From the NCBI RefSeq assembly GCF_044647545.1, contig NZ_CP172818.1: a DNA stretch of 64,000 nt, one strand, 5' to 3'. The translations under genes and the position numbers were made by a program. Shown piece by piece: positions 20,852-22,058 of this stretch (the first letter of the stretch is position 1; every line of letters begins with the position of its first letter). The DNA is from Escherichia coli. Its GTDB lineage: Bacteria; Pseudomonadota; Gammaproteobacteria; Enterobacterales; Enterobacteriaceae. The notes below the pieces were generated by a model. The model saw only the letters and a list, made by a program, of their open reading frames with translations, did not search any database and was not told the origin of the DNA.

Positions 20852-21041
20852 TCGGTAGCTCCCCCAAAGTTAAGGTGGGGGAGATAGATTAGTTGTACAT
20901 TACCACGATTTTGACTCGGCTCATTATTTGCCCGCTTGAGACATTATTTCCATATGTACGCGGGCGAATAAATAGAGGAATCTGATTACTTCCTTCATGG
21001 GGATGCTGAAAAGAGTAGTAATTGCTGGTAATGACTCCAAC

Positions 21042-21554
21042 TTACTGATAGTGTTTTATGTTCAGATAATGCCCGATGACCTTGTCATGCAGCTCCACCG
21101 ATTTTGAGAACGACAGTGACTTCCGTCCCAGCCTTGCCAGGTGCTGCCTCAGATTCAGGTTATGCCGCTCAATTCGCTGCGTGTATCGCTTGCTGATTAC
21201 GTGCAGCTTTCCCTTCAGGCGGGATTCATACAGCGGCCAGCCATCCGTCATCCATATCACCACGTCAAAGGGTGACAGCAGGCTCAGAAGACGCCCCAGC
21301 GTCGCCATCGTGCGTTCACCGAATACGTGCGCAACAACCGTCTTCCGGAGCCTGTCATACGCGTAAAACAGCCAGCGCTGGCGCGATTTAGCCCCGACAT
21401 AGCCCCACTGTTCGCCCATTTCCGCGCAGACGATGACGTCACTGCCCGGCTGTATGCGCGAGGTTACCGACGGCGGCCTGAGTTTTTTAAGCGACGTAAA
21501 ATCGTGTTGAGACCAACGCCCATAATGCGGGCAGTCGCCCGCATCCAACGCCAT
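21042..21554 (-). CDS. insB: IS1 InsB transposase domain
   Basis: 170-aa ORF ...[19 protein letters not shown]...HYLNIKHYQ; N-terminal 8 residues differ from canonical InsB. Confidence 0.75.
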
Positions 21555-21738
21555 TCATGGCCATATCAATGATTTTCTGGTGCGTACCGGGTTGAGAAGC
21601 GGTGTAAGTGAACTGCAGTTGCCATGTTTTACGGCAATGAGAGCAGAGACAGCGCTGATGTCCGGCAGCGCTTTTGCCGTTACGCACCACGCCTTCAGTA
21701 GCGGAACAGGAGGGACAGCTGATGGAAATGGAAGCCAC
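21487..21738 (-). CDS. insA: IS1 InsA, variant with divergent C-terminus
   Basis: 83-aa [26 protein letters not shown]...; matches IS1 InsA to ...MAMNGVGC, then diverges and stops before the A6C slippery site. Confidence 0.7.
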
Positions 21739-22058
21739 GCAAGCACCTTAAAATCACCATCATACACTAAATCAGTAAGTTGGCAGCATTACCTACCTCA
21801 ATGTGTATCACAATCTCCACATTCTGTGTAGGGGGAGTCTGAAGATTGAGTAGATATTCTTATTCAGAATGTATCAACCGATGATTCTACGATTCTTAAG
21901 CCACGAAGAGTTCAGAGAGTGTAACTGCATGTCTGCAAGAACCAGCATCTTTTAACTATCTGGCAACCGGCAGTGTGTTTTCTCACACATCACAAAGCAG
22001 CAGGCATAAAAAAACCCGCTTGCGCGGGCTTTTTCACAAAGCTTCAGCAAATTGGCGA

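Follow-up and report, generated by a model that had tools for sequence, protein, structure and literature searches.

The closest described counterpart of the element analysed here is IS1A of E. coli K-12 (insA1/insB1), which lies between nhaR and rpsT; its insA is intact, it retains the programmed frameshift, and its first DDE position is an Asp. For binding to the terminal repeats, both InsA and the InsAB' transposase require a zinc finger as well as a helix-turn-helix (HTH) domain (PMC12428005). InsAB' provided in trans mobilises immobile IS1 copies and mini-IS1, and the immobile, non-consensus copies IS1B, C, D and F of K-12, whose ends are usable, can be moved in this way (PMC12903888). 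The IS1 copies of the H41 type, which are found in E. coli FDAARGOS_497 and others (at least 30 complete genomes; WP_224053098.1, annotated as "IS1 family transposase"), are 768 bp long, have an intact frameshift architecture and sit at another locus, beside an amino acid/polyamine antiporter gene.

We analysed a 64-kb stretch of E. coli DNA (hereafter the window) whose IS1 copy has the position of IS1A and, over most of its length, the sequence of the H41 type. In contrast to IS1B, C, D and F, which keep their insA/insB' frames intact, the window copy has a frame-breaking deletion; if real, it would be expected to resemble them in having usable ends and being movable in trans. Judging from the sequence of the element and its surroundings, this feature is probably not real.

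An IS1 element in the position of IS1A

The element occupies 21027-21793 on the minus strand and, as delimited by its terminal repeats and by alignments, is 767 bp long, one base short of the canonical 768 bp. With family membership defined by a length of about 768 bp and imperfect terminal inverted repeats of about 23 bp (GGTRATG...CCAACTTAYTGAT), the element belongs to the IS1 family at the sequence level: it is 96-98% identical to annotated IS1 copies and has both ends. Each 23-bp terminal repeat fits the IS1 pattern with 0 mismatches, against a chance expectation of 0.01 matches. The left inverted repeat (IRL, GGTAATGCTGCCAACTTACTGAT, 21771-21793, minus strand) is identical in natural H41 and CH4784 copies. 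In the right inverted repeat (IRR, GGTAATGACTCCAACTTACTGAT, 21027-21049, plus strand), which was located by the search for the terminal repeat pattern, the C at 21045 (IS1 column 750) is a natural variant that is also found in CH4784 and IS1B-type copies. A search of the 64-kb window for a second IS1 end found none, leaving this as the single IS1 of the window.

The sole gap, relative both to the 768-bp IS1A and to the 768-bp closest E. coli IS1, is one C of GGATGCCGGGC at IS1 column 253 (21540-21541, minus strand), where the sense sequence TGCCGGGC reads TGCGGGC and the plus strand loses a G. The missing C falls in a run of two bases, not in a long homopolymer. Among approximately 75,000 E. 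coli IS1 places, the closest full-length relative is of the H41 type (98.0% identity); it shares with the window copy the IRL, the 5' region and a Gly that is described below, and it is separated from the window copy by 14 substitutions in addition to the deletion.

The K-12 IS1A is inserted at exactly the same point, to the base on both sides, in the same orientation and next to the same 138-bp remnant of a fimbrial gene, and it likewise has no target-site duplication. The two copies nevertheless differ at 31 of 768 columns (96.0% identity), the 1-bp deletion included. In the window, the remnant is the 3' part of a fimbrial adhesin gene (20889-21026, minus strand); it abuts the IRR at the K-12 junction and is 100% identical to the corresponding sequence of FDAARGOS_497. 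The bases that flank the element, GTAATTGCT on one side and TACCTCAAT on the other, do not form a target-site duplication of 8-9 bp. Most E. coli have, next after nhaR, a fimbrial operon (adhesin, usher, chaperone and subunit) and the effector gene espX1 (L033 22120-28761); K-12 and the window retain, beside IS1, no more of this than the final 138 bp of the adhesin gene. The gene remnant and the missing target duplication are what an adjacent deletion of the fimbrial island mediated by IS1 would be expected to leave.

None of the other IS1 copies searched shares the missing base. Of approximately 70,700 IS1 places in the 5,426 complete genomes of E. coli that were covered, none gave a full-length match to an 80-bp query over the site that kept the deletion, and neither JGI metagenome contigs nor GTDB representative genomes contained an exact match to a 39-nt degenerate pattern across it. 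The rest of the element is a mosaic: it is of the H41 type over most of its length, including the 5' part, and resembles IS1A at columns 76, 82 and 88, and IS1B/CH4784 copies at columns 661-750. Besides the deletion, seven substitutions are private to it (columns 125, 144, 259, 303, 323, 508 and 612). For a 240-bp segment of the 5' part, the nearest of approximately 71,500 IS1 places is still at least six differences away, and hence no H41-type copy in that set carries any of the private variants of this segment. Each of the seven private substitutions affects an A:T pair, and six of the seven hit a T of the plus strand (P = 0.0007 from base composition), although the strand bias among A:T sites alone, 6 versus 1, is weak (P = 0.06). 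We also considered whether the 14 substitutions relative to the H41 type might all be private and mark a copy that had long been decaying; this was rejected, as four of them, in the 3' part, are natural polymorphisms and seven private ones remain.

Reading frames and catalytic residues

The first-pass annotation had described an IS1 copy at 21027-21793 with a 1-bp indel and an insA frame that changes after ...MAMNGVGC and then stops. Both the length of 767 bp with its single gap and the reading frames agree with that description. The truncated insA' ORF (21487-21738, minus strand, 83 aa, beginning MASISIS) has a GTG start and 66 native residues, after which the insA frame is lost; 17 out-of-frame codons later it is terminated by a TAA at 21487-21489. 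In a Pfam search, the Zn_ribbon_InsA domain of insA' was complete (residues 1-36), while HTH_Tnp_IS1 was matched only over profile positions 1-24 of 46. The native part of insA' therefore consists of the zinc ribbon and half of the HTH domain, and lacks the combination of zinc ribbon and complete helix-turn-helix that an autonomous IS1 has in its intact insA. With the missing C restored in silico, the element encodes a 91-aa InsA, in which the HTH domain is matched over 46 of 46 positions, and a 232-aa InsAB' in which each of the three Pfam IS1 domains is found.

The A6C slippery motif AAAAAAC (21482-21488, minus strand) is intact, but the insA frame no longer reads into it for the -1 frameshift that yields InsAB'. 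The stop had earlier been placed upstream of this motif; the TAA overlaps the first two A's of the motif rather than preceding it. As the insA frame is displaced by the deletion, the InsAB' transposase could not be made from A6C. The InsB-frame ORF (21042-21554, minus strand, 170 aa) contains a full DDE_Tnp_IS1 domain (Pfam PF03400, E = 5e-77, residues 40-170). The proposal that InsB acquires an ATG of its own and thereby becomes free-standing was overstated, given that canonical IS1A already has an ATG-initiated InsB-frame ORF of 167 aa (MPGNSPHYGRW...) and the deletion moves the ATG start of this frame just three codons upstream. The 20 nt upstream of the InsB-frame ATG show no recognisable Shine-Dalgarno sequence.

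In addition to the deletion, the copy has a second lesion, which the first-pass annotation did not mention. The position of the first DDE Asp in relatives (EMDEQW) is occupied by a Gly in the predicted product, Gly47 of the InsB-frame ORF, encoded by GGC (21414-21416, minus strand). An Asp is present at this position in 13 of 15 aligned relatives (42-81% identity). The second and third residues of the triad, D104 and E129, are kept, with 24 residues between them, so that the DDE_Tnp_IS1 domain is complete in length but its triad lacks the first D. The triad as assigned here, with 24 residues separating its second D from the E, follows Ohta et al. (2002; J Bacteriol 184:6146), who are reported to have found that transposition is lost when any of the three residues of the IS1 D-D-E triad is substituted.

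IS1A has GAC at this position, and the window and the two FDAARGOS_497 copies that were examined have GGC; by this comparison the Gly is a natural change that is common to the H41 type and the second FDAARGOS_497 copy. These two FDAARGOS_497 copies (NZ_CP033850.1, L001 1501-2268; L041 1693-2460) carry the Gly although their annotation is that of an intact transposase made by programmed frameshifting. Both may be catalytically dead and retained in place.

K-12 structure with FDAARGOS_497 alleles

FDAARGOS_497 is the complete genome closest to the window, which matches it at 99.99-100% identity except in a few segments; this background is referred to here as the 497 type (a neighbouring hit was named ST648). 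All the FDAARGOS_497 genes of the first 50 kb that match the window outside four disrupted segments have 100% DNA identity, with caiA at 99.9%, and over 21794-43032, which begins directly beside the IS1, 1 base differs in 21,239. Best matches of 97-98.6% had raised the idea that the window came from Shigella or from an unsampled E. coli lineage. This was rejected on the 100% gene identity to FDAARGOS_497; the average identity of the window is low because the garbled segments described below pull it down.

Between nhaR and rpsT, FDAARGOS_497 has a four-gene fimbrial operon and espX1 (6.5 kb), without IS1. The window instead has both K-12 IS1A junctions to the base, one with the 138-bp remnant downstream of nhaR and the other with the region upstream of rpsT. 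The IS1A locus of K-12 has K-12 alleles in its flanks, whereas FDAARGOS_497 alleles surround the window copy and reach both IS1 junctions; the window lacks even the nearest K-12-specific SNPs, which lie 54 bp and 22 bp from the junctions. The locus is thus chimeric, having the structure of one genome (the K-12 junctions) and the alleles of another (FDAARGOS_497, which the flanks match at 100% identity); among complete E. coli genomes, it is matched at no more than 97.1% identity. Homologous recombination would require crossovers within tens of bases on each side to produce such a hybrid, and an independent insertion followed by deletion would need to recreate both K-12 junctions exactly. An ancient insertion that was common to K-12 and diverged in place, as suggested by the identical junctions, was rejected on the FDAARGOS_497 alleles of the flanks and the intact island in that genome.

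Three more sites in the window are anomalous. At exactly the site of IS186 in K-12, the window has a 27-nt insertion relative to FDAARGOS_497, TCTCCC-A18-TG (15262-15288, plus strand). The site reads GGGTCTCCC-A18-TG-GGATCACTCCCC and includes both copies of the target duplication, of which FDAARGOS_497 has a single one; the insertion looks like a collapsed remnant of IS186. A short distance away lies a noisy, deletion-riddled copy of an island with ompK, sulfatase and zinc-binding-protein genes (15693-18480, plus strand), which is absent from K-12. Its span corresponds to L033 15695-19713, compared to 15715-19710 for the 4-kb island in FDAARGOS_497. At the edges of this region, K-12 and FDAARGOS_497 bases alternate base by base, and the error climbs toward the middle, where the sequence becomes 1.2 kb of low complexity with 55% A (17222-18427). 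No ORF longer than 95 aa is found in 15693-18480. Among the plus-strand bases of the island, T and G are changed most (33%), versus 18% for A, and the plus-strand G that is lost in the IS1 deletion is among these most error-prone bases. In this respect, the private IS1 changes show the same pattern of error as the garbled regions.

The third site is a garbled ccdAB region of approximately 190 bp (51571-51764, plus strand), which is also absent from K-12 and has 53% A and 30% C over 51593-51751. In FDAARGOS_497, ccdA/ccdB lie between folA and apaH; the version in the window is shrunken and opens in a K-12-like manner (GAATTT). Throughout the 64 kb compared, the window is anomalous, either garbled or K-12-shaped, wherever K-12 and FDAARGOS_497 differ by about 100 bp or more, while the differences of 15-33 bp that precede position 43 kb are clean. 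The garbling coincides with the structural differences between K-12 and FDAARGOS_497 to within about 20 bp, and remnants of the elements of a template thus occur together with garbling that is confined to the sites of difference. Real evolution does not leave local divergence of 20-60% and poly-A junk in a genome whose remainder has 99.99% identity to a sequenced relative.

Single bases are affected as well. In regions that are otherwise clean, five single-base indels relative to FDAARGOS_497 are private to the window (5531, 5541, 51060, 51812 and 60636); four of them (5531, 5541, 51812 and 60636) are at sites of indels or structural differences between K-12 and FDAARGOS_497, and the fifth is in a T8 run. 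We had considered that the deletion in the IS1 might be real on the ground that the window had no other frameshifts, which these five indels, one of them frameshifting espY1, led us to reject. The additional G at 60636 gives espY1 a product of 239 aa instead of 252 aa that is found in no public assembly. The exact products of both IS1 ORFs and of the espY1 variant were also looked up in a public gene collection, and none was present.

Origin of the element and of its missing base

We consider it likely, with a probability of approximately 0.7, that the IS1 at 21027-21793 and its one-base deletion are a consensus or assembly artefact and do not represent a mutation in a real element; this reading of the deletion derives from the position of the IS1 among several stretches in which K-12 and FDAARGOS_497 appear to be blended. 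The locus is chimeric, the IS186 remnant and the garbled islands are present, and the IS1 is a mosaic with private variants. For the process behind them, we infer a reference-templated long-read consensus or some other form of blending. A strain nearly identical to FDAARGOS_497 would have been laid over a K-12-shaped template or, in an equivalent view, the two genomes would have been blended base by base in a consensus, polishing or generative step. In colinear stretches the 497-type alleles would win, and at structural differences of about 100 bp or more the outcome would be K-12-shaped or a garbled hybrid. Between nhaR and rpsT, the IS1A and deletion structure of the K-12 template would have been retained, and signal from the other, non-orthologous IS1 copies of the strain would have replaced the IS1 interior, giving a mosaic with private miscalls, of which the missing base would be one. 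How a plain K-12-templated pipeline would have taken up 2.8 kb of an island that K-12 lacks is not obvious, and the exact process is therefore uncertain. The IS1 itself is not visibly garbled: it has a single indel and no enrichment in A, and its ends and ORF structure are intact. Real genomes commonly contain mosaic IS1 copies, and the four substitutions that first appeared private and proved to be natural polymorphisms also speak against an artefact.

These last observations would fit an authentic IS1, that is, a real non-autonomous copy killed by a 1-bp deletion in codon 67 of insA. Frameshifted IS copies are commonplace, the deletion falls in a two-base run and not in a long homopolymer, the D-to-G change is natural in H41-type copies, and A6C and both terminal repeats are intact alongside the shifted frame and the truncated domain. 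We nonetheless regard an authentic copy as unlikely, perhaps one chance in a few, because it would have to account for a K-12 locus structure within FDAARGOS_497 flanks, for three further garbled or remnant sites in the same window, for a deletion absent from every other IS1 searched and for private changes that bear the error signature of the garbled regions. Were it real, the copy would produce an InsA' with a zinc ribbon and without the HTH domain, giving neither repression nor InsAB', and an InsB-frame product without a DNA-binding domain and with Gly for the first catalytic Asp, and its intact repeats would allow movement at low frequency by transposase from other IS1 copies in trans. The view of the first-pass annotation that the copy is transposition-defective or at least deregulated is thus sound in its frame logic, with the HTH domain cut and no InsAB', but it holds only if the sequence is real; the alternative that it had kept in reserve, a sequencing error in a repeat, is better supported, and the trouble extends beyond one base to the garbled and chimeric sites.

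It is still far less probable that the copy is both real and functional. Two routes might be envisaged, one being a +1 shift at GCU-UAA-A that would fuse InsA' to InsB, and the other a start at an internal ATG (GGATGC), which the deletion puts in the old insA frame, followed by the -1 shift at A6C to yield N-terminally truncated InsA-B'-InsB species. The internal ATG does open a frame that contains A6C, and IS1 species made by internal initiation combined with frameshifting were reportedly described by Matsutani (1994), a work cited in PMC12903888. The product of the +1 shift would be without the HTH domain and that of the internal ATG without the zinc ribbon, both of which are needed for binding to the repeats (PMC12428005), and either product would have Gly in place of the first DDE Asp. 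Re-pairing from GCU to CUU is not known to allow an efficient +1 shift, and the authenticity of the IS1 sequence itself is doubtful. Equally improbable, at a few chances in a hundred, is an authentic "split" IS1 regulator, in which a zinc-ribbon-only InsA' would be accompanied by an HTH peptide from the internal ATG that could still frameshift at A6C into InsB; if such a variant existed, its products might interfere with other IS1 copies or be complemented by them.

Under the reading as an artefact, the locus is of value mainly as a flag of sequence quality: at least four stretches of the window are unfaithful, namely the IS186 remnant, the two garbled islands and the chimeric IS1 locus. The regions at 15.2-18.5 kb, 20.9-21.8 kb and 51.5-51.8 kb, together with the nearby single-base indels, should be interpreted biologically only with the reads at hand. 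The frameshifted IS1 would be of low biological interest in any case, as a routine IS pseudogene and, if real, an ordinary dead IS1.

Comparable sequences are found among other assemblies. E. coli BHUCD01 (NZ_CM183442.1, RefSeq) has the length of K-12 and, between nhaR and rpsT, an IS1 that is identical to that of K-12 at 31 of 31 variable sites, and, like the window, it has non-K-12 alleles flanking the K-12 structure. The window differs from BHUCD01 in that the interior of its IS1 carries other IS1 types and private changes, and in that it contains, garbled, parts of islands that K-12 lacks. BHUCD01 and PD007 (NZ_CP120910.1) both have the look of consensus sequences that were templated on a reference or poorly polished. 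PD007 is also of K-12 length, and its rihC and caiC are annotated as frameshifted.
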